Assembly (NCBI GenBank): GCA_016748015.1
Contig: JAAOMT010000664.1
Location: forward strand, 70,715 to 134,714
Length of the DNA stretch: 64,000 nucleotides
Reading direction: 5' to 3'
Source of the DNA: Geosiphon pyriformis uo1
Lineage: Eukaryota > Fungi > Glomeromycota
Shown: piece after piece, positions 18,242-50,100 of the stretch
Position numbering within the stretch: position 1 is the stretch's first letter
Layout of the letters: every line of letters begins with the position of its first letter
Made by a program: the position numbers and the translations under genes
Notes under the pieces: generated by a model
Told to the model about the DNA's origin: nothing
The model's input: only the letters and a program-made list of their open reading frames with translations
The model's database searches: none

Positions 18242-18245
<4 letters not shown>

Positions 18246-18274
<29 letters not shown>

Positions 18275-18340
18275 GTAACAATAATTATAATTATAATAAT
18301 AATAATAGTAATATTACTATTATTGTTATTACTATTATAA
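18246..18340. repeat. (AAT)n/(ATT)n low-complexity tract upstream of MCM1
   Basis: seen directly. Confidence 0.85.
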
Positions 18341-18899
18341 TTTTGACTAAGTACCTTTTTTTTTTCTTCTCTTGTGAACTTTTTGGTGCAAAAAAAGCGT
18401 GTTGTGCAGCGAGAAAATAGCTTGTATATATCTTTTATAACTTTCACAATAACAACAAAAAGAATAAAAAGCGCGCGAGTGATAGTAGTAAATACAAAAA
18501 GAGAGAAACGAAAAGACGCAGTAACCGACCACCCACCAAAAAATTTTTTGGTAAAGTTAGTGGTAATAATAATAGTAGTAAGTAGTAGTAGTAGTAGTAG
18601 TGGTGATAAGTGGTAAGCAGCAGGTGCAAAAGTGGAAAAGCGGGCTTGAACAAAAAAGGGACGAACGGAGAAACAAATGTCTGGACGGAAAAGGAGGTCG
18701 GATTTTATAAGTTATTAGATTCCAAAGCGGGTAATGGAATGGGCGCACCATTCATCGCCGCGATTTGCACCAAAATGGGGGTTGTTATTTTTATGATTTG
18801 TTAGGGTTAGGTCAATAATCAGAAGTTACATGAACCAAATGATTTCAATAGTATTAGTGGCTATTTTCTATAGATTTCTATAGAGAGCAGTATGAACAG

Positions 18900-22499: not shown

Positions 22500-22674
22500 A
22501 AAAAAAAATTCTTGAAGCAATTTTTAGTTTGTGGATGTATTTGAAAATTAATTTATTATAATCTTTTTTTTTTTTTTTATTTTTCATGATTAACTGAATA
22601 AAAAAGCCAAAAACAAGATTTTGTTAAAAATATCATATTAATTAAAATAATATTTATTATTATTATTATTATTA

Positions 22675-22721
<47 letters not shown>

Positions 22722-22945
22722 AATACTTGGGATTTTATTAAATTTGAATATTTTGTTTACAGATTAAGAAATCAATTAACAATTTATTTTATTTTATTTT
22801 ATTTTGTTTTATTTTTAAATAATTTTCATTTTTCCAATTAAATTATATCAAATTCTAAAATTCTAAAAATTTGATTATTTTGTAATTAATTATAATATTT
22901 TTTTTAATAAAAAATAGCAATTTAATAAATTATAATTAGTAATAT

Positions 22946-22990
<45 letters not shown>

Positions 22991-25779
22991 TAAAATCAAA
23001 AAAATTTAAGTAATTTGTTTATTAATTAGTTAATTTCAAAAATTATTTTCATCTTAATATTAAAATTAATTGCTTAAAAATAAAAATTTTATCTAAATTT
23101 TAAAGAAAAACTTATAAATTATTAATTATAATTATTAATAATCAAATTCAAACCTGCTTTTAAAATATCAAATATTAAAGACAAAATATAAATATTATTA
23201 TTTTAAATCAATAATTTTTAATCATAATTATTAACAAAATACTAATTTATATTTTTTTATTTTTATTTATTTATTTATTTATTTTTTGTTTTATATTTTT
23301 GTTATTAAATATTAAAATTATAATATTAAAAAATTGTCTGATAAAAAATACAAAAATAAATATAATATTAAATTTATAAAAAGTTAAATAACTTATTAAA
23401 AAAGTAAAAAACATCTAAATAAATTTGTTAAAACATAAAAAAAGTTATATACCAAGTATTAAAAGCCATTAAAGTATTAAATTTTGTTTTTTATACAAAA
23501 AACTCAACTAAAAATTTTTAAATTTACCAAAAATTTTAAAAAATTTTAAGATATAATAGTATTAAATTACAAAAAATTACCAATAAATTTATTTGTAATA
23601 CTTAATATTTTTTGTAAAATATAATTTACAGAAAACATAATATTATTAATAATAATTAATAAAGTGATAAAATAAAATATATAAAAACAAATTACTTTTT
23701 ATTTATAAAGTTTTATCTAAATATTTTAAAAAAAATTTAAAATTATTATAAAATTATATTTAAATTAAATTAGTTTTTAATTTTTGTATTTATAAATTTA
23801 TTTTATTTTATTTAATAAACAAAATCCAATTATTATCTAATACAATACAATTGTTTAAAGTTCTAAATTAAAAATAATTTATGTACTTGTTATATATAAC
23901 CAGTTACTTCATTAGTTAAGACATTATTATAAGATTATATTAACAAAAACAACATTGATTGTATTAATAAAAAACAAATAACTAAATTTTAATTTAAAAT
24001 AAATAACTTGATTTTTAATTATCTTTAGTAAACAGATAACTTTATAAGACATTATAGCGAAAAAATTTATCATATAAAAACTATTTGTATTTTTACTACT
24101 TAATAAGCTTTTATATTCTAATTTTACTTATAATTTTAAATTTAATAATTAAATACAGTTTTTATAACTAATAATATAGTTATATATAAAATAATTAAAA
24201 CAAATATAATATTTTTAATGTTATCAAAAACTATATTGATATTTACTATTTAATTATTAAAAATAAAAATTTTATATAAAAATAAATACAAATTAGTATC
24301 TGTATAACAAAAAACCAAAAACTGAAATATTACAAATAATACCAATTTTTTATTAATAAACAAATTATTTATTTAACAATTCTCAATAAATAATAGTGTT
24401 TAAATAATAAATAAAGATATAATTCAAAATTCTATTTTTTATAGCATATTATTTATAAATATTTTTAAAATATTTTAAAAACAAAAAAAATTTTAAATTA
24501 ATAAACAAAATTTTTATTAAGAATTTAAACAATATTTAAATAATATTAATTTTATAATTTTATAATTATCATAATAAAAATACACTAATAAATCAAAAAA
24601 TACATTTTAAAAAAAATTTATTAATTTTTAAAAATATAAAAAACAATATTTAATTACTATTATTCTAAAAAAAACAATAAATACTTTTATTTAAAAATTA
24701 GTTTTATTATTATATATTAAAAAGATAATTTAATTTTAATAAATAAATTAAATTAGTAAAAATTTAATATATAAGAGATTAGTCTTATAAATATTTTAGT
24801 TACTATTCTTTTTAAAAGTAATAAAAAAATCTGAAAGTAAATGAATATTTTATATTATTAATAAAAGATAACAATTAATATAATTTTATGTTTTATATTA
24901 ATATTCTTATATTAGATATTAATTGTATTTTTAGTAAATATTTATTTAATATACTTTACAAAAACTAATAATTATACAAATTAAAAAAAAAAAGAAAAAA
25001 AATAGCAAAAAATAACAAAAAATTGATATTATTTTATTAATTTAAATATAGATTTAAGTATAAATAATTTTTTTATAGTTTTAAAAATTATTAAATAAAA
25101 AAAAACAACATATAAATTTGGTTAAATAATATAAAAATACAATATAAATAATTTTATATTTTTTTTTAAATACTATAAATTTATAATATTAAAGTTTAAT
25201 AATTAAACCAATTAATTAATAACTTTAAACTCATATTTTTACAAAATTTAATAATTTAAACAGTATTATTTGCTTATAAAATTAATTTAATATTATTAAA
25301 CAAAATATTTATTACTTATTTAAAATGCTTTAATTAAAGTCTTAAACAAATACAAACAATTGAATTTAATTATTATATTATACTTTAATAATTTTTAAAA
25401 AAGGTATTATATTGGCCAAAAATTTTAATTAACTAAACAAAATATAAATTACATATAAGTTATTAATTTAATAATTAACAAAATATCTAATTTAAATACT
25501 AAATTAAAATAATTTAACAAATTTATTATGCAAAAATTAAAAAATATTTAACTAATAATTAAACTATTAATTATTTTAATAAAATAAAAATAATTAAAAC
25601 AATTTTTTTTTTAATTTAAATATATTAACAAAATTAATCTTAACAATAACAATAAAACAATTATATTTGCAATTTATTATTACAAATAAAATTATATTAA
25701 ATTAAATTATAAATTATAATTAAAAAACTAAAAACAAAAAATTAACAACAAAATTTAATTAATAAATATTAAACTTTGA
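22500..25779. other. about 3.3-kb extremely AT-rich desert with (TTA)n 22654-22720 and (AAT)n 22948-22988
   Basis: no ORFs, G/C nearly absent by eye. Confidence 0.85.
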
Positions 25780-27320
25780 TTTTTTTTTAATTTATTGTTT
25801 AATGAGTGCAATTCAAAAGCTACCTAGCATAATACATCAAACTAAGTGATTTAATTTAGGTGCTAATCATGTGTTTTCTATATGTAACTAGTCATTTGAA
25901 TCAATCAAAAACACACTATATTGAAGCTTTAAAAGAAAACTTACCCAAAGAAAGCATCTTCTAAACAATACTAAACAAAGTAATACTATTAAGAACCAAT
26001 TCAACCAGTTATTTAGCTGTTTTCAAGAGATCAGTTTTGATATAAACAGATTCATAAGTCCAAAGAGACATCAAGTTAGAAAATATATTATTATCTACAC
26101 CAATTAGATATTCCAAATTACCAGACATATTAATATCTTTCATGCAGCATTTTTTTTTCAAAAAGATTATCTCTCTTTTCAGTTTATCAACAATCTTATT
26201 AAAGAAATCTATATGCACCAAAACTTCATTGATCCTAAGACCAAGAGCATTACTTGAAACCAAATTATCATTAATAAACTGTTCAAAAATTGTAACCAAA
26301 GAACCAATAGGCTTAACAATAGACTCAACCAAAGCAAAAAACTTAGTTAAATCAAATTCCAAAGAAGACAATCAAAACAGCACTAAAAGATTACCAACAA
26401 CAATTGGAGAAAAAGCAAAAAGTAACAGAGGTAGAAACCCAGAGGAGCTCAAGAGAGTAAAAGTCTTAACATAAAACTTAGAACCAATAAAATGTGGTGT
26501 AAACATCTTGAGAAACTTGGAAAAGAGAAGTAGAGAAACTTTATAGTCCACAGCCAGATGATTTAATTCTTGATACTTGAAACAATGATAACAACCAGGA
26601 GTTTCTCACCAAATATGGCATTTCTTCAATGTATCAGTTTTGACAATAGCAAAATTTAAATTAGCTTGGAAACCAAATATAACCAGAGCAAACTGAAAAT
26701 GATGACCAAATTTAAAAGAACAAGAGATAAAACATGTTTGACTACTAACTTAAGAAATCATATCACTAATTTCAAAAGCTGTGTATTTAAAAAGAAGATT
26801 GACCAACTTGGCCTTAAACTTATTATGAAACAAAATAGTCTTATTTTGATTCATTAGAAGGAGGATTTTAACACTATCTTTGCCCACCAAGACTGACCAA
26901 TAATTCAAAACAGATATAGCAGAGTTCAACTTCTCAAAATAAACTACTATATACTATCAAATGCCAGCAGGCTTCAGTACAATACAAGCAACACTACCAA
27001 ATACATTGAAAGCTGTCTTAATTTTAGTAGCAGACATATCTAAGAGCACATCATGCAGTGCAATAGCAGCAAAAGAAGAACCAGACTCAGAAACCATCAA
27101 AGACTTGGTAATTTTAAGAGTGGCCAAATGTACAAAACATGTAGGCTCAACCAAAAATGCAGTTTCTAAAGACACTTGAGAAGCAAACTCTACACAAAAC
27201 AGCTTCACATTGTCTTTTAATACTGATTTTGCATTCAAAAACCATGTATTGACTAAAAAACAGCCTTAATATGAACCAATTTAATTTTAAAAGTAGCACT
27301 AAGCATTAAGTAAAGACCAC
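25780..27320 (-). mobile_element. ORF1-only non-autonomous LINE derivative (HAL1-like), 3' segment with degenerate RRM+CCHC ORF1, LINE-type 3' UTR and poly(A)
   Basis: RRM-like segments (KLFCVEFASQVSLE; ALHDV..DMS..IKTAF.VFG), degenerate knuckle C-FK-Y-QELN-H-LAVD-Y at ~26545-26585, stop at 25916, 3' UTR aligns with LINE 8774-8918, T-run 25780-25788. Confidence 0.75.
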
Positions 27321-28090
27321 TGTTACAGATGATTATTTGGGTCTCAAAGCAAATAACAAATCCATAACTTGGTGCTTAATTGGTACTCTGGCATAGATAT
27401 CTGAAGGTTTTATTGATCTGAAGATTTGTGGTAAAGTCCTTTGTATGATAAACAGAGATTTAGCAATTGTTTTCAATAGCCTTCTGAAATTGCAATTCCG
27501 TCAAATTTTTTTCTCAGCATGGTGGCCAGTAATTCTCCTGGTAAGCTATTCTCAAATCTATGAGTGTTTTACCCTTGTTTCACAGGTTTTTTACCAGTCA
27601 CTATGATGTCTGTATCTTAGTGCTTAATTCTTAATCAATTTAGTAAAATTACAGAAATAACAAAAGAAATAAAATAAAAGAAAATAAAATAAAAAAATAA
27701 CAAAAGCAATTGCAAATTAATATCCTGCCAATAGCCATGATCAAGAGCTATTATTCCAGTATGATTAAGTATCAATTACTATCAACATGAAGTGTTGATA
27801 GTGGGAGTAGATTTGAGATAGAGAATAATTATTTATTGATATTTGTGGATGGGAAGATCACTTAGATAAAATCTAAACTGAAAGGTTTGTCTTTTCTATT
27901 TCTAATGCTACCATTATATATACATAATTTGGGTTCTATGAGATCACTCACATTTTTAAATGATGTGCTATAATTTCTTAAGCAATGCTCACATTGCTTA
28001 GCAATGTGTCATATTTTCTTGACATTGTTCTATATTGCTGAGTAATGTGCTGTGATTTTTGATATTGCTCTATATTGCTAAGCAATGTGC
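27321..28090 (-). repeat. 3' LTR of element B, segment 1 (continues at 37576-37648)
   Basis: aligns with 45939-46703; interrupted by element A at GTGC. Confidence 0.92.
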
Positions 28091-29068
28091 TGTTACTAGA
28101 CAAAATTAGAGATATCATTTAGCATGAAACTATCTCATAATTCCTATCATTAATTAGCATATATTATCATTTCAAATTATCACTTATTATATTAGCAAAA
28201 AATGTCCAAAATTATCATTTAATTAATAACCCAAATTGTACACAACACAAATGTAACCTAATTGCAATGATCAATCATGCAATACCCCGAACTATGTAAC
28301 ATTCAAAAGTTCGCCGAAATTCATAGAAATTTGCCGAAATAATTGATAGTTCACTGAAATATTTAATAGTTCGCAGAAATAACTTGTAATTCGCTGAAAT
28401 GTATCTTTAGTTCAGCAAAATTGTAGAAAATAGCAAAGTTCAAGTTCATAGAATAGTGTTACAACAAGTTGTATAAAAGAAGAGCTTCTCTCTTCGAGAA
28501 AATGTATCTTACTTTAGATTTATCTCTTAAAACCATTCCTATACACACAAAAAGAAATAAATATCAAATAATTCGAAAAACCAAATTCTTTAATTATTGT
28601 ACTTGGAAAATCCCCAAAACCCAACTAACATTTTCAAAATTGATTAGCTACCAATTTCAGTAAACTGTTAGTGACTCCAGGCCTGGATAGAAAACGTTTT
28701 CCTTAATAAAATTCCTATTTCTTTTTACATTTCTTTTATTTTTTTCTTTTATTATTATAATCATTAGGGTAGCCTACAGACAAAATTCCTGTAGAAGAGT
28801 TGACTTTCACAGCAAAGTAACTACATTTTTAGTGAGCTTTCAGACAAGCAATTCCTGGGAAAGAGTTGACGTTTACTACAACATAACTACATAAAGTAAC
28901 TGGCAAAGAATTGGCCATTCCACTTATAAGCCCAGCAGTTCAAATTATAGGAGATAATTTGAAGATAAATTCAGTTACTGGAGGTTCAACCACATCCAGA
29001 AAACGTAAATTCACAGCAAATAAGTATCAACAACATTACAGAAAAGAGACCAAAAACCTCCGGTAACA
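28091..29068 (+). repeat. 5' LTR of element A
   Basis: direct repeat of 36618-37575; TATA-like GTATAAAA ~28471. Confidence 0.95.
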
Positions 29069-29113
29069 TTTGGTGCTCTCCCATGGAAACAACACAGCAA
29101 AAACAACTTCAAA

Positions 29114-31290
29114 GTGGCGACCACACCAGACACAACAATTCTAAAGTATTACCAACCAATTTACACCCACTGCAAGCAAAGATTCAACATTCCAGACGGA
29201 ATTGAAGTTGTCAAGAAATCAGTATACCAATACATTGAAAACCGCATCAACAATTATCTTTTTGGAAATTACAATATCTCAAAAGTTAGAAGCAACCTTT
29301 ACAATAATTTAGCACACTATTTACAGTTGGGAACTGAAGACCTTAATAGTGAAACACTTGCCACTTACTTTCACGAACTTAATTTTAACATTATCAAATA
29401 CTGTGAAGAAACATATCCAGTACAGTCTCAATACANNNNNNNNNNNNNNNNNNNNCAAAGATTCAACATTCCAGACGGAATTGAAGTTGTCAAGAAATCA
29501 GTATACCAATACATTGAAAACCGCATCAACAATTATCTTTTTGGAAATTACAATATCTCAAAAGTTAGAAGCAACCTTTACAATAATTTAGCACACTATT
29601 TACAGTTGGGAACTGAAGACCTTAATAGTGAAACACTTGCCACTTACTTTCACGAACTTAATTTTAACATTATCAAATACTGTGAAGAAACATATCCAGT
29701 ACAGTCTCAATACATTATTGATTTTGAATCGGAAACAGAAACAAGCAACAAAGACAAAAACAAATTAAAGCAATATTCAAGAACCATCCCAAATACTCTA
29801 ACACTACCGAAAACAACTGCCAAACATTTACAAACACCTGAACAGGGAACCAGTTCAAAACTTCCACTTACTATTACACTTTTTCCAGCTTCACTTGCAC
29901 AAGCACAAACATCTAATTCACCCTTGAATTGATTTGCAAAACCAGAAGATTTTACATCACTCAGAAGTCCTACCAGACAACAAGAACCCCTTCAAACTAG
30001 TTCCAATCTCCTTGATTTTCTAGCTAAAAATCAAAGTGAACACTCTGAGACAGCAGCAAACAAAGAAAACAACTCTGAAATAACCGAAGAAAAATCAATA
30101 AACAGTGAAAACAAAGAAGACGAAATGACAACATACATTGCAAAAATCCCTGAATTCAATGGAGAAGATATTGAGACCAGTCCCCAAGAATGACTCGACC
30201 AAGTTACTAAAGCTGAAGATGCAAATGGATGGAATGCTGCTAGAATGTTAAGAACAATACCCTACTTTCTCAAAGGAATAGCAGGAGAATAGTTTGAAAA
30301 CCTTGCCGCCCCATTCAATGATTGGAATGCTTTCAAAGCAGCCTTCCTTAAACAGTTCACCAACAATAATACCTCCATCACTCTTCGCAATCGTTTTCGA
30401 AATATCAAACAAGAACTCTCCGAATCTATTATGACTTATATTGGGAAATTCAACAAACTTCTCAAACGGATTTGCCAACTCGAGACAAACAATTATTATT
30501 CTGATGCTCAAATCTTGGATCAATTTATCACTGGTCTAAAAGATAAACTAATTAAAAAAGTTCACCTACACGCACCAGAAGATTTAAACTCTGCCATACA
30601 GCATGCGAAAAAATACGAAATGGTCATGGAAGAAACCAATTGTACAAAACTTGTAAATTTGGCAATTGGAGAAACCAGCTCAGCAGCTGAGAAAAAAATT
30701 GACCAACTCACAAAGAAGGTCGAAAACTATTTTACCAACCAACAACAACAACAACCCCAAAGATATCAACCACTCCAAAGACGAAATCAAAATAACTTTG
30801 CACCACTTTCCAATAACCAGCCCCAGAATTGCCATTACTGTGGAATCTCTGGCCACTGGAAAAGAGATTGCAGAAAGCTGCAACAAGACCAACAAAATAA
30901 GGGTAATTAATATTACTCTCCACTACAGCAATTTTATTATCAATCATCACCACCAGCTTACTATCCACCAAGACCCCAATACCAAAATAACTATTATCAG
31001 CCCGCCCCACAACCAATCCAACAGCAATACCAACAACCACCCACCCAACATTATCAAGTACCTGCTCGAAGACTGATTACACAAAATCAATTTACACCAC
31101 AAAACCGATACCAAGTAAACAACAGTAGAATTAGTTCGAACAACCAATTGGTTCCCCGAAATACCACTCAAACAAGACCCAACCATTACCACACTCAACC
31201 CAGTTATTTAACAATGCCGGAAGAACAGGATTTTTACCATACTGTACTCTCGGAAGGTAGAGCTGCAGCAACAACAACGAAACTCTTCTC
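29114..31290 (+). pseudogene. gag: gag of element A (long N-terminal domain, capsid, CCHC knuckle, Q/P/Y-rich tail)
   Basis: IPEFNGEDI..SPQEW.D.V, W.AFKAAFL..F, CHYCGISGHWKRDC; several premature stops; includes an assembly gap. Confidence 0.88.
29436..29455. other. assembly gap flanked by an exact 259-bp duplication (29177-29435 = 29456-29714)
   Basis: N run with identical sequence on both sides. Confidence 0.9.
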
Positions 31291-32744
31291 ATAACCACAC
31301 CATTATTTCACCAGCCCGAATTGTTGAAAACGCCAATCTTTCTGATATCTTTCCTTTTGAATTTGAAGCAAATGAATCACCATTTTTGCTTAGCAATGCA
31401 GCGGCTAATGAGCAAAAAGCCATCACTGCAATGTACACAGAAGCTAAAGTAGAAGGAAAGCCAATTCGCTTGATCCTAAACAGTAGATCTGCCGGAAGCA
31501 TTATTACCTACCAGTTAATGCAACAGTTGAAAAGAAATGTCAACCAACCAGCTCAAACAGTAATCGTCACTGCCGATGGCATGAAAAAGACCCCAGTAGG
31601 AGAAATTGACAATTTTCCATTCACTCTTGATGGAATCACCATTCCAGTTAAAGTTCTTGTAATAGACGCACCTCAGTATCAAGCTCTTGTCGGAAATGAT
31701 TGGCTTCAAGAAACCAATGCTAATCTGAATTGGGAAACACAAGAGTTAACAATCTCCTACCAAGGACAACATGCCCGGGTATCTGCCATTTGTGGTACAT
31801 TCAACAAATGCTCTGAAAAAGCCCCAGCTTTTGAATTTGAACCAGAAGAAAAAAAACCAATACTCGAAACATTTATGGCTCTTGGATTAACATCCAACTG
31901 GGCCGATGAAACAGAACAAGAACATTTTACCCCATACACTAAACCCGAAACCGCTGGATGGAATATACCTTACTCAAAACCCGAACCAAGAAAACAATGC
32001 CCCTATATTCCCCTTAAATATAAGGACTGCCACAAGAAACTATTGTCAATGGGAGCCTGCATTTCACCTGAAGAAAAATATGAGAATCATACTTGTTATT
32101 ACTGCAAGGCTTGCCACAGAGAGTGATGGGGCTATCTAATAAAAAGGAGCGGAAAATGGGACAACACCCTTTGTTTGACTTGTGGAGATATGCTACCAGA
32201 AGAATGCAATTGGATTGATATAGCAATGAGAAGAGGCATCTGTGATCAGACCTGCCAATATGCTTTATCAATTTCAGAAAAAGTAAAAAGAGGAACACCC
32301 TTTAATGCAGCATACAACAGTGCTCTCAACAAACTTTATCACTACCCTCATAATGCTGAGATGATTTTCGACTTAAAAATGGCATTAATTAATGGAGCTA
32401 CCAAAGAAGATGTTCATTAAATGAAGGAAGCAGAATACATTGAATACACTATGGAATTAGCTGGATTCAATTACGAAGATGAAGTAGAAGTCTATCACCA
32501 AATTGCAAGTCATACCTACTCGACCCAAGAAGCTCAAATTCAACGATTAGAGCAAATAAACATTAGGCTATGTGAAGAATGCATTATGTCTTGCGATAAA
32601 CAATGGTGTCTTGAATGCTATGCTCTTAGTATACCCTTGCCCAGTGAAAATGATGAGAATGAAATTAAATTCGGAGAACCTGAAGAAACAGAAGAAATTG
32701 AAACAACACCCATCTACCTTATCAAAAATCAGCCTGCCTTACAA

Positions 32745-33170
32745 CTTAAATACTTCAACAACAATGAACAAGAAATAAAACCTGAAAAAGCACACAAAAT
32801 TGATGCTGGATATGACCTAAGATACCTAGGCAAGGATACTCTTGTTCTCAAACCTAAATCTCTTACAAAAATCAACCTTAAAATTGCATTCGAAATCCTG
32901 CCAGGAGCAATGGTTCAAATCGCCTCCCGGTCCTCTTTGGCAAGCAAAGAAATCAATGTCAGAGGAGGAATAATCGATGCTGGATATACTGGAGACATAA
33001 CAGTGATGCTTCAAAATGAAACTGACAAACCATTCAAGATCAAACATGCTGAAAAAATTGTCCAAGCTATTTACTTACCCTTAATCAACATTTCCAGTTT
33101 GCAACTAGTCCATCAAAGAGAACAATTAGGAAAAAGCAATAGAGGAACCCAAGGTTTTGGTTCAACTGGA
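32745..33170 (+). CDS. dut: dUTPase domain inside pol of element A (between PR and RT), reading frame open
   Basis: all five motifs: DAGYDL, ASRSSL, GGIIDAGYTG, EKIVQ, RGTQGFGSTG. Confidence 0.93.
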
Positions 33171-34609
33171 CGATTCACAGTTCCAGTTAATATAGCTCTT
33201 AACACACAGAATGAATCCTACCAGATTCTCAGACTTCCACAACTGATTACTATCTCACCCTTTGGAGAACATCTGGAAATCTACACCTGCCCAAAGTCAA
33301 CAACCACACAACAAATTTTTGAGTCCAATGAACAAGTTTGCTTGGAACATAATATTTCGATCCCAAACATTTATATTCCAGAAGAAACAAAGAAAGTCCA
33401 AGTTACTTTTTACAACCCCAATAATTACCCCATAATTTTATTAAATAATTTAGAAATTGGAGTTATTCACAGTAATATATTTCAACAAGAATTACCCCAA
33501 ATAGTTTCCAATTTCTCTAAAATTATTGGACATTCAATACCAAAAACCAACCCAAACTTCAGCTCCGAAAACTACCATGTTGTCATGGAAAAACTATCTC
33601 GAATCAACATGGGACAACTTGAACCACAACAACAGACCCAGCTCAAAGAGCTAATTGTAGAATTTGCTGACATCTTTGCCGAAAACAACAATGACTTAGG
33701 AAGAACTGATTTGGTTCAACACCAAATCTATACAGGAGATACCAAACCAAGGCAACAACAAGCCTACTGAGTTGTCCCAGAAAGTCACCAATTTATCCGA
33801 GAAGAAGTACAACAGATGCTTAACAATGAGCTTATTCAATCATCAATGAGCCCATGGGTCTCACCTGTGGTCCTAATTAAAAAGAAAAATGGAAAAATAC
33901 AATTTTGTGTTGATTACCGACAACTCAACAGTGTCACCATTGGGGATGCCTACCCTCTTCTCCGAATTGATAACATGTTGGATGCCCTTGAAAAGTCCAA
34001 ATACTTTTCAACATTAGATTTAGAGAGTGGATACTAACAAGTTGCTATGGATCCCAAAGACCACCCCAAAACAGCATTCACCACTCAAGAAGAAAATTAC
34101 GAGTTCAATGTAATGCCTTTTGGATTATGCAATGCACCAGCAACATTCCAAAGACTCATGGATGTTGTTTACAAAGGCCTCTTTTGGAAATCAGTAGTAG
34201 TTTATCTCAATGACACTGATGTTTATTCACCATCTTTCGAGCTACATTTAATCCACCTGTAAGAAGTTTTTCAACGATTACGGAAAGCAGGATTGAAACT
34301 GAACATTGAAAAATGCTACTTCAAAAAAACAAGTTTAGCTTTTCTTGGTTACATTGTTAGCAAAGATGGAATTAAACCAGACCCCAGAAAAATCAGTACT
34401 GTCAAGAACTTCAAGACTCCATAAAATACCACAGAATTAAGAGGATTTATTGGATTAGCATCCTATTACCGAAAATTCATCAAAGAATTCTCAGAAATTG
34501 CAAAACCCCTCAACCAGCTCACTACTAAAAATGTCGAATACAAATGGACAGAAGAACACCAAAATGCCTTTGAGATACTTAAGGAAAAACTCACAACAGC
34601 TCCAATCCT

Positions 34610-34680
34610 NNNNNNNNNNNNNNNNNNNNNNNNNNNNNNNNNNNNNNNNNNNNNNNNNNNNNNNNNNNNNNNNNNNNNNN
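34610..34680. other. assembly gap where RNase H and the start of integrase should be
   Basis: N run; flanks jump from LTTAPI (end of RT) to the integrase zinc-finger region. Confidence 0.9.
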
Positions 34681-35929
34681 CCACCCAAAGAACACTAGAA
34701 TACTACTTTTGGCCTCGAATGAGAAAAGACATTCATGAATATGTCGAATCTTGTGATAGTTGTCAAAGAAGAGGAGAAACTCGCCCTACAGAACCTTTAA
34801 ATTCAATCAAAGTTGGACAGCCTTTTGACAGAGTTGGTATCGATTTAGTCAGACCACTATCTATCACCACTCAAGGAAACCGTTATATTGCAGTAGCTGT
34901 AGACTATCTTACTAAATGGCCTGAAGCCAGAGCCATTCAATGAGCAGATGCAAAATCAGTAGCAAATTTCATCTACGAAGACATCATTTGTAGACATGAA
35001 TGTCTAATTGAACTTTTATCCAATCAGGGAACACACTTTGTGAACAACCTGATACAAGAAATTTGTGAATGATTCAGTGTCAAAAGACTTCTGTCTTTGC
35101 CTTACCATTCACAAACAAATGAACTTGTGGAACATTTTAACAGAACATTGTGTGAGTCATTAGCCAAAGTCTCAACCGATTTTGGGCAAGAATGAGATCT
35201 CTTTATTCCATCAGTGTTACTAGCATATAGGACATTAAAACAAAATACCACGAAACACACACCATTTGATTTAACTTATGGAAGGATGACAACGTTACCA
35301 ATTAGTTTCACAGTGGAAACATACCCAGCACAACCGATCGATAAAAACAATTTCCAAAAAATGCTTCAGCGAAGAGCCTACACTCTGCTTAGCACATTGG
35401 AAAGAAAATGACAAATAGCAGCCACCCATATTGAACACTCCCAAGCTCAACAAAAAGAATGGCATGATGACAAATTGTCTTCAGTCACTAATAAATTCAA
35501 AATTGGAAACAAAGTTCTCTTACACAGAACTAAAGCTGAAAAACAATGGAGTGGAAAATTTGAAAATAAATGGGATGGACCATTCTTTATCCATGAAGTC
35601 CTAGACAATGAATCATACAAGCTAAGACTTGATGACAAAATCCTAGCAAAAGTTGCACATAGAGATTATTTGAAACACTATCATTCCAGAAACAATCCTG
35701 AACTATTAATTTCACAAATTGGTACACATTCCCCTTTGATCAGTCCCGAAGATATTCCCCGAAACTTAGAACCAATAGTTGTCATTGAACAACCTTTCAA
35801 CTTGAACACTTAATTTAATTTTACTAGTTATTCTCTTATAATTTAGAACAATCTCACAAAAACAAAACAAAAATAACATAAAAACCCATAAACCAAAAAT
35901 AAATTTTTATTTTTTTTCAAGTGCTTATA

Positions 35930-36649
35930 ATGACTATTACTCAAAACATTCAACAATTATCCCAAAAACTAATGTTAGCTTTAAAAACAATACCCGAATT
36001 ATTCATTACTGTTACTGAAAACCACATAAATTATACCCAAACAGAAGTAGTTACAAATTTAGCCCCAAATTTACGAAAATATCACCCATATAAAAAGAAC
36101 ACAAGAAGTTATACTGGAATTCACCTGCCAGAACTTTTAAAGCTTGCTTTAAGAGAAAACCTAATGCTCACTCCGATTAGTATCCCACCAAATGCTACAA
36201 GTCAACAAAAACTTCAACTGTGTCTCAATGAGAAAAACACTGAATATCCTCCAATCTATAGATATTTTCACATTGGAAAAACACTCTATGAATGGAAACT
36301 GGAACTTACAACAGCAAACCTCACAAAAGAAGCTATTCAGAAACAACTCCACAATGAATTCAAGACAACAGCTGGATCAACAAACAGTCACTATAGGCTT
36401 AGATCTGCTCTTAGACTTTATGACCTATTCCACACCTGTGAAAACGTACTACAAAACCCAATTTTTCAACCTTTGAAGATTTAATACATTGGAAAGCTTA
36501 CAGAACTGAAATTTCAACAATTTTCAGACCAAATTTCTTCAATAATTTTGGATTATTATCTGGAAATAACAGACAGTACTTGGACTTCGACAGAGCTCAG
36601 TTTTGAGGAGGAGGTTATGTTACCAGACGAAATTAGAGATATCATTTAG
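35930..36649 (+). pseudogene. ORF3 of element A (240 codons, one internal TAA), env position, unknown function
   Basis: ATG 35930 preceded by a T-tract+CAAG acceptor; runs through the PPT into the 3' LTR; homologous motifs in B, C, D and E. Confidence 0.75.
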
Positions 36650-37575
36650 CATGAAACTATCTCATAATTCTTATCATTAATTAGCATATATTATTGTTTC
36701 AAATTATCACTTATTACATTAGCAAAGAATGTCCAAAATTATCATTTAATTAATAACCCAAATTGTACACAACACAAATGTAACCTAATTGTAATGATCA
36801 ATCATGCAATACTCCAAACTATGTAACATTCAAAAGTTTGCCGAAATTCATAGAAATTCACCGAAATAATTGATAGTTCACTGAAATATCTAATAGTTCG
36901 CAAATGTATTTTTAGTTCAGCAAAATTGTAGAAAATAGCAAAGTTCAAGTTCATAGAATAGTGTTATAACAAGTTATATAAAAGAAAAGCTTTTCTCTTC
37001 AAGAAAATGTATCTTACTTTAGATTTATCTCTTAAAACCGTTCCTATACACACAAAAATAAATAAATATCAAATAATTCGAAAAACCAAATTCTTTAATT
37101 ATTGTACTTAGAAAATTCTCAAAACCCAACTAACATTTTTGAAATTGATTAGCTACCAATTTCAGTAAACTGTTAGTGACTCCAGGCCTGAATAGAAAAT
37201 GTTTTCTTTGATAAAATTCCTATTTCTTTTTACATTTCTTTTATTTATTTTTATTATTATTATAATCATTAGGGTAGCCTACAGACAAGATTCCTGTAGA
37301 AAAGTTGACTTTCACAGCAAAGTAACTACACATTTTTAGTGAGCTTCCAAATGAGCAATTCTTGGGAAAGAGTTAACGTTTATTACAATGTAACTACATA
37401 AAGTAACTGGCAAGGAATTGGCCATTCCACTTATAAGCCCAGCAGTTCAAATTATAGGAGATAATTTGAAGATAAATTCAGTTACTGGAGGTTCAACCAC
37501 ATCCAGAAAACGTGAATTCACAGCAAATAAGTATCAACAACATTACAGAAAAGAGACCAAAAACCTCTGGTAACA
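36618..37575 (+). repeat. 3' LTR of element A
   Basis: direct repeat of 28091-29068, lacking about one U3 repeat unit. Confidence 0.95.
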
Positions 37576-37661
37576 GTGCTTATGTGCTAACTATTACTTT
37601 CTTATTGGCCTACTATTTTTTATATCTGTTTTCTTTTTATGAATAACATTATTTTTTCTTT

Positions 37662-38297
37662 TTAATATTGAGTTCCATCAAAATCTTTGTTTTGAATTAA
37701 TTCTAGTACTTTTTTTTCAAGTATTGTTTGTTCAACTCTATTTCTCATATCTTCTACCTGTGTATTGTTTATTCTTCCCTATTGGTTAATGGTTATGGTT
37801 TCCATGTTAGAGTGTAACAGTATTTTTGGATAGTTCTGAAATATGTTGTGTAATTAATACATTGTTTTAACATGTAATGTTAAATTTGTTTTCTTTCTGA
37901 TAAATTCTTCAATTTGCTGTATTATGTTTTGGTTGAATATTCTCTTGGATTTATCGATATACAACTCCTGAATATTTAACTTTTAACCTAACTGGTAGTA
38001 TTAATATGATATTAGAAGTTGTTCTGTTCATTGTTTTCAATTTTTTTTTGTAAGCTCTTCTGTTAGTGCCATAATAAATATTTTTCTAAAAGTGTTCTTT
38101 ACTTTTTCTATTAAGTTATCTGTCCAGTTTTTATCATTCTTTGGTGGCTGCTGATATAGTGTATTTTTTGTCTTTCTTTGGGTGTTTTAATAGCAAATTA
38201 TTTGGTTGTTAATAACAATTTTCATGTCTAACTGTTGTTGACTTAAGGCCTGGAACAATTGTTGAGCTATAGTGTGAATATGATTTGGTATTTCCAT
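37662..38297 (-). pseudogene. ORF3 of element B (212 codons)
   Basis: ATG GAA ATA CCA...CAA TAT TAA in frame; homologous to D. Confidence 0.75.
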
Positions 38298-38354
38298 TTT
38301 TCTTGGTTGCTTTTGTCATGTGTACTGTGTCTTTATATACTTTTGATTGTTCAA

Positions 38355-41300
38355 TTTGACGTGTTTGGTTTAATAACTATAATTGGTTTTAGATCTCATG
38401 GAATTTCATCTGATTGAACTAGTATTCTTTGTACTTCCAGTTGTAGAATGTTATCGGTAGATGATGATACTATCTGATAATATGGTTTCAATCAATTACC
38501 ATGTGCTGCTTTGGCTAAGATTTTATTGTTCCATCTTAATTTATAAGCTCTATTTCCTAGAATTTCTTCTATGTGAAATGGTCCGTCCTATTTGGGGTCA
38601 AATTTTCCACTCCATTGTTTTTCCACTTTAGTATGATGTAGAAGTACTTTGTCTTCAATCTTGAATTCAACTGGTTTGTCTAGTAGTTGGTTATCATGTC
38701 TCTTTTTTTGTTTTTCTTGTAACTTTTGTATGTTGTCAGCTGCTTTTTGTCATCTGTTTTCTAGTGTTTCTATTAAGTCATATGTTCTTTTCAACAATGT
38801 TTCTTGAAAATTATCTTCTGTTATTGGTTCAATTGGATATGTATTGACCTCTATCTCAACTGGTAATGTTGTTGTTTTACTGTATACTAATTTAAATAAT
38901 GTTGCTTATGTGGTATCTTGCTTTATTGTCCAATAAGCAAATAATACTGATGATATAAACAAATCTTATTCGTCCTGGTTTTTTTGGCTAATTTTGGCTA
39001 TTGCTTCATATAGTGTTCTGTTGAACTTTTCCACTAACCCATTTGTTTGTAGATAATATGGTGATAATAGTAGTCTTTTTATTCCAAATTTTTGGCTTAA
39101 TTCTGCTAATGTTCTATTTACAAAATGAGTTCCTTGATCTGGATAATAATTTTTTTGGACATCCATGTCAACAGATCAAATCTTAATAAATGAATTTGAC
39201 AATGAATTCTGCATCTGCTCTTTAAATGGCTTTTGCTTCTGGCCATTTAGTGAGATAGTTCATGGCTACTGCAATATATCTGTTGCCTCTGCTGGTAATT
39301 ATTAATGGTCCAACTAAGTCAATTCCAATGTAATCAAATAGTTTTCCCACTTTGATTGGTCTTAACAGTTCACTGAATTTTGTTTCTCCTCTTCTTTGAT
39401 AAGCATCACAATTTTGAACATATTGGATGATGTCTGGATATATTGATGGCCAATAATATTTTTTTCTAGTTTTTTCCATGATTGCTTCTTTATAAAAATG
39501 TCCTGCTGTTGGATCTGAGTACATGTTGAACAATATTGTCTCTTTTTCCAGTTCTGTAATTACTCTTGTTGGTTGGTTTGAAGTTCTTCTGTTTTTCTGG
39601 TAAAGTATATTTTAATGATTGATAAAATATTTTGATTGTTGTTTTATGTTGTTTTGTTCTTTTTGAGATAATTTCTCCTTGAACAATTGGGTATTCATAT
39701 AATGTTGAAGTTGTTGGTATTTTTGTATATTCATCTTTTGTTATATTTTTGAGTTGAAATGTTTTTAGATTTGTCTCATTCGTGACAAACCGTCAGCATT
39801 TTTATTGTCTTTTCCTTTTTTATAATATACTGTATAATTGAATAGTGAAAGTTCTATTTTCCATCTGACATAGCAGTTGTCTCCAAATTCTTACTTTTGG
39901 ATTGAAGTCAATCCTTTGTGATCCGTATATATTTCAAACTTTTGGCTCAAGTATTTTTTCTATTTCATGATTGTCCAATAGATTGCTAAGTGTTTTAATG
40001 CTGGTGTTTTATAGTTCTTTTCAGCTGGACTTAAGCTTCTACTGGTGTAAGTTACTGGATGTTCTCTTCCATCTGGTTCTTTTTGTGATAGTACTGCTCC
40101 CAATGCTTGGTCTGATACATCAGTGGTGATTATGAATGGTTTGTTGTGATCTGAATACATTAATACTGGAGCTTGGATAAGCTTTCTTTTTAATGTGTCA
40201 AACACTTTTTGTTGAGCTTTAGTCTATTTATACTTCACATTTTTGGTTTGTAAATAATAGAATAGCTGAGCTAGTTTAGAAAAGTCTTTGATAAAGTGGT
40301 GATAATAGTCTGCAAATTCCAAAAATGCTCTTAGTTCTGGCAAGTTTGTTGGTATTGAAAAGTTTTTTACTATTGTAATCTTATCTGAATCTGTCTTGAT
40401 ATCATTTTTGCTCACTATATGTCCCAAAAATTTGAGTTCGGTTTTTCCAAAGAAACATTTGGTTGCATTTAGCTTTAATCTGGCTCTTCTTAGTTTTTCG
40501 AACACTTGTTGGAGATGATGCAGATGATCATTGAATGTTTTTGAGAACATATTGGTGTTATCTAAGTATATGACTACTGATTTCTATAGTAGTCCAGTAT
40601 ATACAATTTCTATAAGTCATTGGAAAATGGCTGGTGCATTCATTAAGCCGAATAGCATTACTTCAAATTCAAAGTTTCCTTCTCGAATTGTGAAAGCTGT
40701 TTTCTCTTTGTCTTCTAGTTTCATAGCTACTTACCAGTAATTACTGTTTAAGTCTAGTGTCAAGAACCATTTATTTTCTCCAAAAGTGTTGAACAGCTCT
40801 TGAATCTTGGGTGTTGGATAGTTATCACCTTTGATTACTCTATTCAGTTTCTAATAATCCATGCAAAAGCAGATTTTCCCATTTTTTTTCTGGACTAGTA
40901 CCATTGGTAATGACCATGGACTCATTGATAGCTGAATTAACTTATTGTTAAGCATCTGATTAATTTCTTGATGAATAATCTCATGACTAGCTGGTAGTAC
41001 TCTGTATGCTCTTTGTTTTATTGGCATTGCATCCCCAGTCTTGATTTGGTGCTAGATAATATTGATGCAGCCAAATTCATTTTCACTTGCAAAGATGTCA
41101 TTGAAATTGTTGAGTAACATCTTTAGCTGCATTTGTTGGAGTGGGTCTAGATTCCCCATGTTTATCTGTTCCAATTGTTCTGGTTAGAATAGATAACATT
41201 TGCTTCATCTGTAAATAGTTTATGATGTGATGTCTACATATCTGCAAAGCTGTGGAAAATTTGGAATGTGGTTTGGTGGTTGATCTTCAACTTTGGTGGT

Positions 41301-44300
41301 TAAATATCCAATGATAGTTCTTTTTGGTATTTCAATGACATTTCCTGTTGTGTTGTAGATGAAAATTTTGATATTTTTGGGGCTTTTGGCTGATATGTAG
41401 AGATTAGTGAGTCCAATCTCTCTTAATTTGCAAATAGTGGCTTCTGTTTCAAACAACTGAGCTTGATTCTTTACTTCTCTTTTTATGGTTAACATATATT
41501 GATCATATGGTGGAATGGAAATTGTTTGACAGGTTGAGATAATTTCTTCTTTGTCAATAACTTCTTCTTCTGTCATATTAATTGGTATGTCTATTCTATC
41601 TGTTGATCTGAATCCCTGTATCCTTCTAGCTGTAATCCCTAGTTCTTTCCTGTTTCCCACTGAGACTAATTGAGCTATTTTTATCAAAGGTAGAAATATT
41701 GTCTATGCTATCTTTTCATTTGGATCTATAGTATATGCTTTTTCTGAGTCATTTTGTAGCATAGCAATGATATTTCTTATGTATTCTGCATCAATTATTT
41801 TTTCTCTGATCCCTTTTTTTGTTAAACTACTTCTGGATGCTAGTTGAACCATTATTGTTGCTAGAATTTCTAGTGCTATTTTCAGATCAATGCAAGTGCA
41901 CAAATGTGGTTCCAATTTGATGGGATCTTTCCCTGAATATCTCAGATCAAACCCTGTATCAATATTATGCACATATTTAGACATAATACCTTTGTTATTT
42001 TCACTAAACCATTTCAGTTCTTGTTCCTTGGTGAGATCAGGCAGTGTAATATATGCTTTGGGGTTTGAATTGGAGTCCAAATCATTGTTATTTTTGTTGC
42101 CATATTGAGTGGAACTGGAACCATTGTTTTTATCGTCATCATTGTCAAAGTTTGAATCAGGATTGAAAGTTGATTCTGATTCTAATGCACAATTGCTGAT
42201 TGGTTCTTCCTTTTCTGAGATCATGTAGATCATGTGTGGTGGTGGATTGTAAATGAGGTCACACTTATTACAATATTAGAAGTCACATGGAATTAGGCAA
42301 TGTTGACACAGTCGAGTGTTTAATTGCTCTAAGCATTGCTCTTGTTCTTCTCTTGTGGGCACTAATCACTGATAATGTTTATGGAATTCTTCCAGGTCAT
42401 TCTTAATGTTGCCAAAGACATTGAAAGTTTGGATGTATTCAGGTTCAGAAAGAGATAGAGGATTGTTTTTGATTTTCAGTAGTTTGCTGGTTGTTGCGCC
42501 TTCTGTTTTTGTGTATGCCATTCTTCAGAGTTCATGTTTGTCATAGAGATATCCTTCCAATTGTCATAATGCTTTTTTCCAGGCATTATTAATTGGTGTT
42601 CTCTTGAATACTCAGTTGTTGATTAGGATCATATACTAATACATCTCATCATACTTTCCTCCACGTCCAGAAATGTTATTTCACATTTCTTTGTTAGGTA
42701 AAATAGTTCCACAGACAAGACACAGTTCATTGTCTTATTTTTTTTGCTATTTTGGTTGTCCAAAGCATTCTATAACACATGGGTGACAGTAAAACTTGGT
42801 TGCCATTTGATATTTCTCATCGTCATCACAACATGTGCCCATTGATGACAATTTCTTGTCACAATTGATACATATGAGTTTTGGTCGATAATAGGTAGAT
42901 TGTTAAGGTGTAGTGTAGGTGTAATAATTATAAGTGGTGCTAATAGATGTTGTTCCTTTTTTCTTTTTCTTTTCCCTTGTCAGTCTTTTCCCACTCCCAA
43001 GTTGATGAGTTGTCTTGGTTATTATCAGTTTTCTAGGCTTGGTTGGTATTCCAAGTAAGTTCTTCCTTTTGCTTTTCTTTGTTGTTGTCATCCCAGGAGA
43101 GTATCAGCAGCAACTTGTTGTGGTCTTTGTCAGTCCAGAACACTTAATAGGCTTCTCAGATAGGTTTCTTCTCTTCTTCCTCAAATTCAATAAGAGGTGC
43201 TGATATGTTAAAGGTTTTGAAATGGCCACACGTGGCTGGTATTCATGTGTGTTAACCATTCTGGCTGAGTTGGAGTTCCTGCATCATCCAGTTAAGTATG
43301 GCATTGGTTTTAGCTAACCAGTCATTTCTTATCAATGTATGATATTGAGTTGCTTTTATCACTAAGACTTTGATGAGAATGATGATGCTATTGACTTCAA
43401 AAGAAAAGTCATCAATTTCACCAATAGGAATTTTAGTTGCCCCATCAGCAGTGATTATGCAAGTGCTAGCAGCACGATCAACTCAGCAACCTAATTGGTC
43501 CATGAGTTGTCATGTAATGATGCTCCCAGCTGATCCACTGTCTAGTATCAGCTTAATGACATAACTATCAACCTTTACATCAGTGTACATAGCAGTAATC
43601 AGTTTGGTGTCAAGAACAGCTCTACTAAATAATAGGACTATTGTGGTTACCTCAAGTTCAAAAGGAAAAATAGCTGCTAAAGATTTGTCATGAGAGATGG
43701 TTGCTGGTGGAATATTACTAGTAAGTAACTGTTTTTGACTGGATTCTGGGTTGTTAAATGTGGCATCTTCTGGGGTAACCAGGAGACTTAAATAGAATTG
43801 AAAATTTGGATTTTGGGTGTACCCAATGCCCAAATTCTATTGTCAAAATCCCAATTGTTGCATTGAAGAACTGAGGATCAATTGATGGACTACTATTGAC
43901 AATCTCCAGCTTTGTTGTGTCAGTTTCAGCCTTTGAATTCTGTTTTGAGGTAAGTTCTATGGCAGTGTTTGAATTAGTTGGGGCTAATAAATTACTTAAG
44001 GTTGTAACTGATAAATAGGTTGAGACTGTAGTTGATAAATGACAGAATTTGTTGGCTGATAAGTTGGTGGTTGATAGATTGGCTGTTGTATCATAGGTAG
44101 GTAATTCAGTTAATATGGTGCCAGGTTGGGTTGATAATTTGGAGCTTAAAACCAGCAATTGGGGTTTCGATATTGATTTCCCAATCGTGAGTTATTATTA
44201 TAAAATCAGCAGTCGGTTCTAATGTGTCCTTGTTTACCACAGTTATGGCAGACACGTGTTTCTTGTTACTATGGCTGATTTAATGATGGACACAACTGAT

Positions 44301-45919: not shown

Positions 45920-45936
45920 TCTCACAGAAAGCACCA
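45920..45936 (-). promoter_or_regulatory. PBS of element B
   Basis: TGGTGCTTTCTGTGAGA 2 nt after the LTR, a transition-mutated version of the X PBS. Confidence 0.75.
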
Positions 45937-45938
45937 AA

Positions 45939-46773
45939 TGTTACAGATAATTATTTGAGTCTCAAAGCAAATAACAAATCTGTAACTTGGTGCTTAATTA
46001 GTATTTTGGTGTAAATATCTGAAGGTTTTATTGATCTGAAGGTTTGTTGTAGAGTTCTTTGTATAATAAACAAAGATTTAGCAATTGTTTTCAGTAGCCT
46101 CCCAGAATTACAATTCCATTGAATTTCTTTCTTAGTGTGGTGGCTGGTAATCCTCCTAGTAAGCTATCCTCAAATCTATGAGTGTTCTACTTTTGTTTCA
46201 CAGGTTTTTTACCAGTCACTATGATGTCTGTATCTCAGCACTTAATCCTTAATCAATTTAGTAAAATCACAGAAATAACAAAAAAAATAAAATAAAAAAA
46301 GATAAAGAAATAACAAAAGCAATTGCAAGTTAGTATCCTGCCAATAGCCATGATCAAGAGCTATTATTCCAGTGTGGTTAAGTATCAATTACTATCAACA
46401 TAAAGTGTTGATAGTAGGAGTAGATTTAAGATAGAAAATAATTATTTATTAATATTTGTAGATGGGAAGGTTACTTAGATAAAATCTAAACTGAGAGGTC
46501 TGTTTTTTCTACTTCTAATACTATCACTATATATACATAATTTGGGTTCTATGAGATTGCTTACATTCTTGAGTGATATGCTATAATTTCTCAAACAATG
46601 TTCACATTGCTTAGCAATGTGCCATATTTTTTTAACATTGTTCCACATTGCTGAGCAATATGCCATGATTTCTAATATTGTTCCATATTGCTAAGCAATA
46701 TGCTTATGTGCTAACTATTACTTTCTTATTGGCCTACTATTTTTCTATATCTGTTTTCTTTTTATGAGTAATA
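45939..46773 (-). repeat. 5' LTR of element B (CACATTGC-palindrome U3 type)
   Basis: TGTTAC...GTAATA termini, followed by TSD CCAC. Confidence 0.92.
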
Positions 46774-47167: not shown

Positions 47168-50100
47168 TATTATAGATAATTATTTGGGATCTCAAATCAA
47201 ATAACAAATCTGTAACTTGGTGTTAATAGCTAAAATGATGAGAATATTTGAAAGTTTTTTTGTATCTGAAGGTTTTTGTGAAGTTCTTTGTATAATGAAC
47301 AGAAATTCAATAGTTGTTTTATTAATAGCTTCCCAGAATTGCAATTCTATCAAATTTTTTTCTCAGCATAGTGGCCAGTAATCCTCCTAATAAGTTATCT
47401 TTAAATTTATAAATTCTCTATCCTTGTTTCATGGATTTTTTACCAGTTTCTATGATGTCTGTAACTTAGCATTTTTACTCCTAAATCAATTAGTAAAACA
47501 AAACAAGAAAATAACAAGCAAAATAAAATAAAAAATAAAAAATAAAAAAATAAGCCAAGGCAATAAATGTTAGTATCCTGTTAATAGCCATGATCAAGAG
47601 CTATTGTTCCAGCATGATTAAGTATCAGCAACTATCAACATAAAGTGTTAATAATGGAGGATAAATTAAGATAGCAAATAATTATTTATTAATATTTGTG
47701 ATGTAAAAGGTTGCTTAGATTAAATCTAAACTAAGAGTTCTGTTTTTTTTACTTCTAATACTATTGCTATATATACATAATTGAAATTTCTCAATTCCTC
47801 AATTCTTTACACCAGAAATCCTGGAATTCTTGAAATCTTGCAATTCCTTTAAGAAAAATCTTGGAATTTTGAAATTCTGCAATTTCTTATATGAGAATCC
47901 TGAAATTCCTGAAATCCTGCAATTTTTCTGAAAGGAATTCTGAAATTTCACATTTACTATATCTACTTCTGATTGGCTAATTTATATGTTAATATATTTT
48001 TTATATTCTAAGAATAACATTATTTTCTCCTTTTAATATTGAGCTCTGTCAAGATCTCCTAATTCTAACTCTCCATTCTTAAGTATTTTTTGAACTTTTT
48101 TTTCGAAAATTACTTGTGTTATCTTGTTTTGTAATTCTTCAAATTGAGCATTGATTATTTTTTCCATTTAATTAATGGTAATAGAGTCCATTGCTAGATT
48201 GAGTAAAATTTCTAGTCGGTCTTGAAATCCAACTTGTAATTAATAGATGGCTTATACTTGTGTGGTTAGATTGTTCTTTTCCACAAATTGTCCAAGTTGT
48301 TGTAATATTTCTGGATTGAATAATCACTTTGTCTTATCTATATATAAGTTTTGAATATTCAGATGTTGTTCTAAGTGAAAATAACAAAAGTTTCTTGGAA
48401 ATTTTTGTATCCACCAATTCCAAGTTTCTTTGGTTAATTTTTAATATAGAGTAATTTTTGTTGGCTCTTCTATTGCCAATTTTATTTTTAGAATTATTTT
48501 GTTAATAGTGTTTTCTGGTTTCTTTTGTACTTTGTATTGGAGTATCTTTCTGGTATCTTTGTATTGAATGGTTTGTTAATTGATAGTAATTTCCATATTC
48601 TGTTGTTGAATTAATTGAAAGAGTTGTTGTACTAATGAGTAAATATTGTTGGTAATTTCTATTTTTCTAATATCTTCTGTCACATCTATTATGTTTTTAT
48701 ATTCTTTTAATTGTTCAATTTAATGTGTTGGTGTTGATAATAATGATTAGTTCTAGATCTGGTGAAATCTCATCTGGTTAAACTAGTATTCTCTGTGCTC
48801 CTAATTGTGGAATATTACTAGTAGATGATGATATTATATGGTAATATAGTTTCAGTCAATTATCATATACTGCTTTGATTAAGATTTTGTTGTTCAACCT
48901 TAGTTTATATGCTCCATTTCCTAGAATTTCTTTTATGTGAAATAGTCCATTCTATTTGGAGTCAAATTTTCTACTCCATTGTTTTTTCACTTTGGTATGA
49001 TGTAAAAGTACTTTGTTTTCAATCTTGAATTCAATTGGTTTATCTGGTAGTTGGTTATTGTGTCTTTCTTTTTGTTTTTCTTGTAATCTCTGAATATTAT
49101 CAGCTGCTTTTCACTATTTGTTTTCTAATATTTCTATTAAGTTATATGTTTTTCTTAACAATGTTCTTTGGAAATTTTTTTCTGTTATTGGTTCTGTTAG
49201 ATATGTTTTGACTTCTATCTTAACTGGTAATGTTGCTGTTTTACCATATAATAATTCAAATAGTGTTGCTTGTATAGTGTCTTGTTTTATTGTTTAGTAA
49301 GCAAATAATACTGATGATATAAACAAATCCCATTCATCTTGATTTTCTTGACTAATTTTAACAATTGCTTTATACAATGTTTTGTTAAACTTTTCAATTA
49401 ACCCATTTGTTTGTGGGTGGTATGATAATAATAATGGTCTTTTTATTCCAAATCTTTGGCTTAATTCTGCCAATATTCTGTTTACAAAGTGAGTTTCTTG
49501 GTCTGATAATAGTTCTTTTGGACATTTGTGTCAACAAATCAAATTTTGATAAATGAATTTGGCAACGAGTTTTATATCTGCTCTTTGAATTGTTTTTGCT
49601 TCTGGCCATTTAGTAAGATAATTCATAACTACTGCAATATATCTGTTTTCTTTGCTGGTTATTGTTAATGATTCAACTAAGTCAATCCCAATATGATCAA
49701 ATAGTTGTCTCACTTTGATTGGCTTTAATGGTTCACTGGGTTTTGTTCTTTCTCTTTTCTAACAAGCATTACAATTTTGCATATATTGAATGATGTCTGG
49801 ATACATAGATGGCCAATAGTATCTTTTTCTGATTCTTTCTATGGTTGCTTCTTTGTAAAAATGTTCTGCTGTTGAATCAGAGTGCATGTTAAATAATATT
49901 GTTTCTTTTTCTGGTTCTGTGATTACTCTGGTTGGTTGATCTAGATTTTTTCTGTTTTTCTGATAAAGTATATCTTAGTAAGTAATAAAATGTTTAGATT
50001 GTTGTTTAATATGGCTTTGTTTTTTTAGAAATAATTTTTCCTTAAACTGCTAAGTATTAATATAGTGTTAGAATTGTTGATATTTTTGGATATTTATTTT

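Follow-up and report, generated by a model that had tools for sequence, protein, structure and literature searches.

The stretch of DNA analyzed here (64,000 nt of the Geosiphon pyriformis contig JAAOMT010000664.1; the window in the following) contains the 3′ ends of five long terminal repeat (LTR) retrotransposons, labeled A to E, each of which carries an extra open reading frame (ORF3) downstream of integrase. The elements belong to Ty3/gypsy, as judged from an LTR pair, a target duplication, gag, and the domain order protease, reverse transcriptase, RNase H, integrase (PR-RT-RH-INT); RT-RH of a related metagenomic locus, L001, was nearest to that of Ty3 (E 6e-47). Their pol genes encode protease, dUTPase, RT-RNase H, and integrase domains (Pfam), and the full gene order is gag-PR-dUTPase-RT-RH, followed by INT and then by ORF3. 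Element A (5′ LTR at 28091–29068, 3′ LTR at 36618–37575, both on the + strand; 92.7% identical in the LTR pair comparison) is nested inside the 3′ LTR of B and flanked by a 4-bp duplication, GTGC; C is interrupted by D, and D by E. The duplicated sequence (28087–28090 and 37576–37579) is compatible with a decayed CpG-centered site.

All five extra ORFs listed in a preliminary description, made from the sequence alone, were recovered at their positions, in a single frame each and with every length a multiple of 3. ORF3-A (35930–36649, + strand) comprises 239 codons with one internal TAA at codon 185 and is 92% identical to the stop-free annotated protein P0002. The two copies of the B/D type, ORF3-B (37662–38297, − strand) and ORF3-D (52160–52795, − strand), contain seven and five internal stops, respectively, the latter copy being 80% identical to the stop-free P0122; those of the C/E type, ORF3-C (48033–48662, − strand; start decayed to ATA) and ORF3-E (60196–60825, − strand), contain six and eight. 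Because the window is CpG-depleted (observed/expected ratio of 0.35) and the differences between ORF3-B and ORF3-D are mostly transitions (75 of 81), the internal stops are attributed to decay. The placement after integrase was as described, but ORF3 does not always stop short of the 3′ LTR: ORF3-A reads across the polypurine tract into the LTR (start at 36618) and terminates 32 nt within it. The cis element at this boundary (GAGCTCA..., polypurine tract, and LTR start; 36598–36622, + strand) is conserved and is read in one frame in A and L001 and in another in B–E.

The ORF3 proteins of A and of B–E are homologous (HHalign probability 92.7, E 4e-7, 188 colinear columns). Instead of the two divergent families originally distinguished, the window holds three (A, B/D, and C/E), the last two sharing only 37–43% identity. 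A search with ORF3-A yielded 206 relatives (E ≤ 0.001). Among the 120 listed were the window's own protein and 119 hypothetical proteins of G. pyriformis; 26 of the 120 have 235–245 aa and the canonical end, and 38 have 221 or 225 aa, as they would if translation began at the second methionine. With that many matches for family A alone, copies of a transposon ORF3 account for hundreds of the "hypothetical" genes of Geosiphon. A HMMER profile search of 1.84 billion representatives returned 71 relatives of ORF3, of which 18 were looked up (15 from Geosiphon, 3 metagenomic); by eye, the alignments contained approximately six Geosiphon types and three metagenomic ones. On the metagenomic contig L001, RT-RH, a stop, integrase, a spacer, a stop-free ORF3, a polypurine tract, and an LTR follow one another in the same layout as in the window elements, and its ORF3 is 32% identical to ORF3-A.

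Selection was assessed from the ratio of nonsynonymous to synonymous differences per site (pN/pS), with stop-containing codon pairs excluded and a null that preserves the substitution spectrum (1,000 permutations). For ORF3 of C and E, pN/pS was 0.32 versus a null of 0.60 ± 0.10 (0 of 1,000 permutations as low), and for B and D, again 0.32, versus 0.49 ± 0.11 (28 of 1,000). Two cross-family pairs gave 0.46 versus 0.77–0.79 (0 of 1,000 each), and integrase, as the control, 0.22 and 0.25. ORF3 is under purifying selection; it is a genuine, conserved, and selected gene of these Ty3/gypsy elements. The outcomes set beforehand as arguing against a maintained protein were all absent: pN/pS was well under the null, A and B–E were homologous, and no chromodomain or integrase match of ORF3 was found.

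The ORF3 product is apparently soluble. The maximum Kyte–Doolittle mean over 19 residues was 0.27–1.29 in 10 of 10 ORF3 proteins, none of which contained a transmembrane or signal segment by hydropathy, and the number of cysteines was 0–3. Homology, selection, and hydropathy together bear out the earlier notion of a maintained, soluble accessory protein that is not Env. The errantivirus-like splice acceptor proposed along with it fared less well. The T-tract and AG exist in A (35904–35921, + strand), where the site reads AAG and the nearest YTRAY branch-type motif lies ∼105 nt upstream, but neither B–E nor L001 has a T-tract with AG ahead of the ORF3 start codon, so that the acceptor is present in only one of six sequences. 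Instead, five of the six have a TATA box (TATAWAWR; background of ∼1 per kb per strand) ahead of ORF3: at −42 in B (TATATAAA, 38332–38339), −39 in C (48694–48701), −41 in D (52829–52836), −41 in E (60859–60866; all on the − strand), and −126 in L001. Within 200 nt upstream of ORF3-A, no TATAWAWR was present. A candidate internal promoter would be the simpler reading than splicing for these five sequences, A excepted. The position after pol and the AG with T-tract in A would suit an Env-like fusogen translated from a spliced RNA, or else a host gene that was captured and has no role for the element. Both are highly improbable and largely refuted by the missing transmembrane and signal segments, the few cysteines, the absence of the acceptor from five of six sequences, and the fact that ORF3 is selected in every family seen, down to 21–32% identity, which a passive passenger would not be.

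In the predicted structure, an N-terminal helix and a β-hairpin are joined by a linker to a compact helical core (predicted local distance difference test of 90), with conserved basic residues on the helix that follows a G-K-T-N turn, in the fashion of a helix-turn-helix. No convincing Pfam, PHROG, or NCBIfam family match was obtained. A weak likeness to the ParB/Spo0J helix-turn-helix and to DUF1016_N (PF17761) consists of the helical order, a colinear Y.IG..L / G..N / R.Y..F pattern, and a full-span structural alignment. Of 54 E values, the best was 0.015, P0002 scoring 12.9 bits against DUF1016_N (Pfam gathering score 32.8), and HHalign of ORF3 against nine natural members of that family gave P values of 0.004–0.007 (probability 5–8%).

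A distinct repeat array lies immediately upstream of the TATA box in the LTRs of each family. The A array consists of near-palindromic TTCRSYGAAA sites with a period of 20–21 bp (+ strand; six sites in the 5′ LTR, 28309–28423, and four in the 3′ LTR, 36836–36928, upstream of TATATAAA near 36976). That of B/D is a 19-bp palindrome with a period of 40–41 bp (− strand; three sites in the split 3′ LTR of B, 27990–28089, three in its 5′ LTR, 46603–46702, and four in the 3′ LTR of D, 51933–52072), and that of C/E is built of GGAATT.CAGGATT units (− strand; 3′ LTRs of C, 47817–47949, and of E, 60036–60108), which also occur in the element at the left end of the window. In the LTR of L001, the motif is TTGCCCT. 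Matches fell inside the family's own LTRs in 10 of 12 (B/D) and 19 of 21 (C/E) cases, and inside its two arrays in 15 of 26 (A); as the motifs were derived from these same arrays, the informative part is the mutual exclusion between families. Downstream of the TATA box, the LTRs of B and C share 88% identity over 150 nt; upstream of it, they share 53% (49% when shuffled).

In L001, the LTR motif was also found ahead of the TATA box that precedes ORF3, its two best sites among 2,455 internal bases being at −200 and −179 (0 of 20,000 shuffles); among 14 7-mers that are repeated in the LTR, TTGCCCT is the only GC-rich one to occur twice. No such site precedes ORF3 in B–E, and that in A ranks merely fifth, so that the motif is clear in one of six elements.

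ORF3 type and U3 array co-vary, as a pattern across four types, and each ORF3 type adjoins its own candidate target sequence. Since each change of ORF3 between families goes with a different row of palindromes, ORF3 likely encodes a DNA-binding switch for its own element. We see about an even chance that the protein binds DNA and activates, or counteracts the silencing of, its own LTR. Among the functions suggested in the preliminary description, self-regulation or anti-silencing gains from the family-specific arrays, and movement remains without support. A rival reading, in which ORF3 is an accessory protein that binds RNA (suppressing silencing, chaperoning RNA, or serving in packaging or movement within the multinucleate hypha), appears unlikely. 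The protein is helical, partly basic, and nonenzymatic, Gypsy elements are small-RNA targets in Rhizophagus according to the accessible literature, and the top Atlas match was a closterovirus coat protein (0.91). However, that match had 138 of 256 features in common, fewer than the 170 usual for genuine family members, and its recognition was low; there was no viral fold match, and sequence-independent RNA binding would leave the co-variation with DNA palindromes unexplained. The same search gave a faint echo of the helical domain expanded in Glomeromycota that the preliminary description mentioned: 25 of 30 Atlas matches were unnamed clusters, the best ones mostly from Mucoromycota, with a recognition value under the threshold of the tool.

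The joint deep divergence of ORF3 and U3 array between B/D and C/E is not mirrored by integrase. Across B/D versus C/E, integrase is 74–85% identical and ORF3 far less so. Integrase pS was 0.32–0.35 across the two groups, 0.37 for C and E, and 0.25 for B and D, so that integrase does not split them, whereas ORF3 is near saturation across B/D versus C/E (pS 0.71–0.75; third-position transversions 29–32% versus 3–5%). Because the silent sites of ORF3 differ too, this reflects older ancestry and not just faster protein change. It looks as if recombination had placed ORF3 and the U3 array jointly beside pol genes that are closely related, or as if pol had been homogenized around them; Athila offers a precedent for recombination between distant families, as far as the accessible account goes.

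Integrase itself has an unusual arrangement. In all five informative sequences (B–E and L001, A having an N gap), an in-frame TAA directly follows RNase H, and in B–E a second TAA lies eight codons downstream. In B (39732–39767, − strand), these are at 39765–39767 and 39741–39743, with the integrase ATG at 39732–39734; the other junctions are at 50095–50130, 54231–54266, and 62300–62326 (− strand) and at 772–800 of L001. An ATG for integrase follows the stops in B, D, and L001; it reads ATA in C and is shifted by an insertion in E. Gag through RNase H resembles one ORF, barring copy-specific frame slips. Chance decay, at ∼2 stops per 100 codons, is insufficient to account for the TAA because its position is common to families 50% apart. 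Judged from the reading frames, integrase is a separate ORF and not within a Pol polyprotein, a variant feature that does not exclude the elements from Ty3/gypsy and that raises the question of how Pol proteins are expressed and packaged.

A free-standing integrase adjoining ORF3 would fit an integration-targeting tether, with ORF3 taking over the role of the absent chromodomain and directing integrase, made separately, toward silent, repeat-rich, or CpG chromatin. Compatible with this are the nesting of the elements, the GTGC duplication of A, which fits a decayed CpG, and the C-terminal end of the A integrase (SH3-like; 35412–35813, + strand, stop at 35811–35813), the last 133 aa of which matched only SH3_Tf2-1 and, weakly, a domain of unknown function, and no chromodomain (Pfam; A only). 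However, a partner of integrase should diverge with integrase, and ORF3 is 43–44% identical between B/D and C/E where integrase is 74–85% identical; ORF3 tracks the U3 array instead, which makes a tether quite unlikely.

For a self-acting DNA-binding switch, the sequence of events would be as follows. A short transcript from the internal TATA box after integrase would give rise to ORF3 protein, which would bind the phased palindromes in its own LTR, probably as a dimer, and thereby activate the CpG-depleted element or lift its silencing; for the related Rhizophagus, the available part of the literature documents both CG methylation and small RNAs at transposons. The unit of exchange would be a specificity cassette of ORF3, polypurine tract, and U3 array, and each family would activate itself only. 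More tentatively, and with the balance somewhat against it, this LTR lineage of early-diverging mycorrhizal fungi may encode a sequence-specific transcription or anti-silencing factor of its own, transcribed from an internal promoter and descended from a ParB/DUF1016-like helix-turn-helix protein. Gene and operator array would then form a lock-and-key cassette that can be exchanged on a common pol backbone with stand-alone integrase, giving a fungal retrotransposon that has no env a regulatory circuit in the style of complex retroviruses. The main weakness of a self-acting switch is that the pairing of ORF3 with its array could arise from linkage alone. The cassette and array evidence would fit equally well a negative regulator that binds the array but represses the LTR, for copy-number control or exclusion of related elements. 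ORF3 has no clear activation domain, and ParB-like and helix-turn-helix domains are frequently repressors. Arrays upstream of a TATA box are, however, usually activating, and LTR elements have grown to a share of 41.2% in the Geosiphon genome (PMC11952901, in the part available); repression is distinctly improbable.

Several further features were observed in the window. A sixth element of the lineage occupies 1–5429 (− strand; 3′ end outside the window), with a C/E-type array in its 5′ LTR and gag and protease in one frame. Primer-binding sites starting TTTGGTGCT immediately follow the 5′ LTR in three elements (29069–29085, + strand; 45920–45938 and 4525–4542, − strand). Protease and dUTPase are separated by a long stretch rich in cysteine, including several CxxC pairs (31900–32700, + strand; 41700–42600 and 56350–57560, − strand), without a Pfam match in the segments scanned. 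An exact 259-nt duplication around a 20-N gap in A (29177–29714) is probably a scaffolding artifact, and a second assembly gap (34610–34680) covers its RNase H/integrase junction. In addition, decayed ORF segments resembling a non-LTR (LINE-type) reverse transcriptase region (5813–8452, + strand), very AT-rich tracts (GC 10–17%; 12000–14000 and 22500–26000), and short-period tandem repeats (14977–15178, 18235–18348, and 22558–22753) were seen. An ORF segment at 16650–17900 (− strand), ending RAGRRKIKIEYID, is what we take to be a look-alike of a MADS-box (Mcm1/SRF-like) host gene.

To our knowledge, most extra ORFs of LTR retrotransposons are without known function. No published description of this ORF3 family was found in a literature search, within the accessible parts of the sources, to which the following comparisons also refer. 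Sense-strand additional ORFs between pol and the 3′ LTR are described for plant Ty3/gypsy elements, where they are Env-like with transmembrane segments and spliced in Bagy2 (PMC7264820), and an "add. ORF" is drawn for fungal Gypsy elements, some of them dUTPase-bearing (PMC2864245). ORF3 shares with these its position, orientation, and presence in all copies, but, compared with the plant ORFs (PMC7264820), it is soluble by hydropathy, has a TATA box upstream in five of six sequences, and lacks a convincing family match. In A, the dUTPase-bearing pol segment lies between protease and RT (32421–33767, + strand; Pfam dUTPase E 1.2e-20), as in Postia PosPlaTy3-5, Phanerochaete, and Tuber Tmt1 (PMC2864245); unlike these, the window elements have no chromodomain match (scanned in A), integrase in its own ORF, and the extra ORF3. 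Foamy virus Tas, which binds the LTR and an internal promoter (PMC4929722), is likewise an accessory gene near the 3′ LTR, and L001 has the LTR motif and a TATA box upstream of ORF3; however, no sequence or fold link between ORF3 and Tas was found, there is no env, the host is a fungus, binding is only predicted, and the motif ahead of ORF3 is clear in one of six sequences. VANC of Arabidopsis, an element-encoded accessory protein as well, targets tandem repeats that vary between related VANDAL elements (PMC5735166), just as the noncoding tandem candidate targets of ORF3 differ strongly between related elements. VANDAL is, in contrast, a DNA transposon, there is no Pfam link, and the candidate targets of ORF3 are phased palindromes confined to U3. 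The logic suggested for ORF3 would thus resemble that of VANC and Tas, with ORF3 being a member of neither family.

If ORF3 acts in this way, the families would be a source of orthogonal protein–operator pairs, and fungal retrotransposons would join VANDAL transposons and complex retroviruses as carriers of element-encoded, sequence-specific self-activation. Such an action could also help to explain the LTR load of ∼41% that the accessible genome account reports for Geosiphon.
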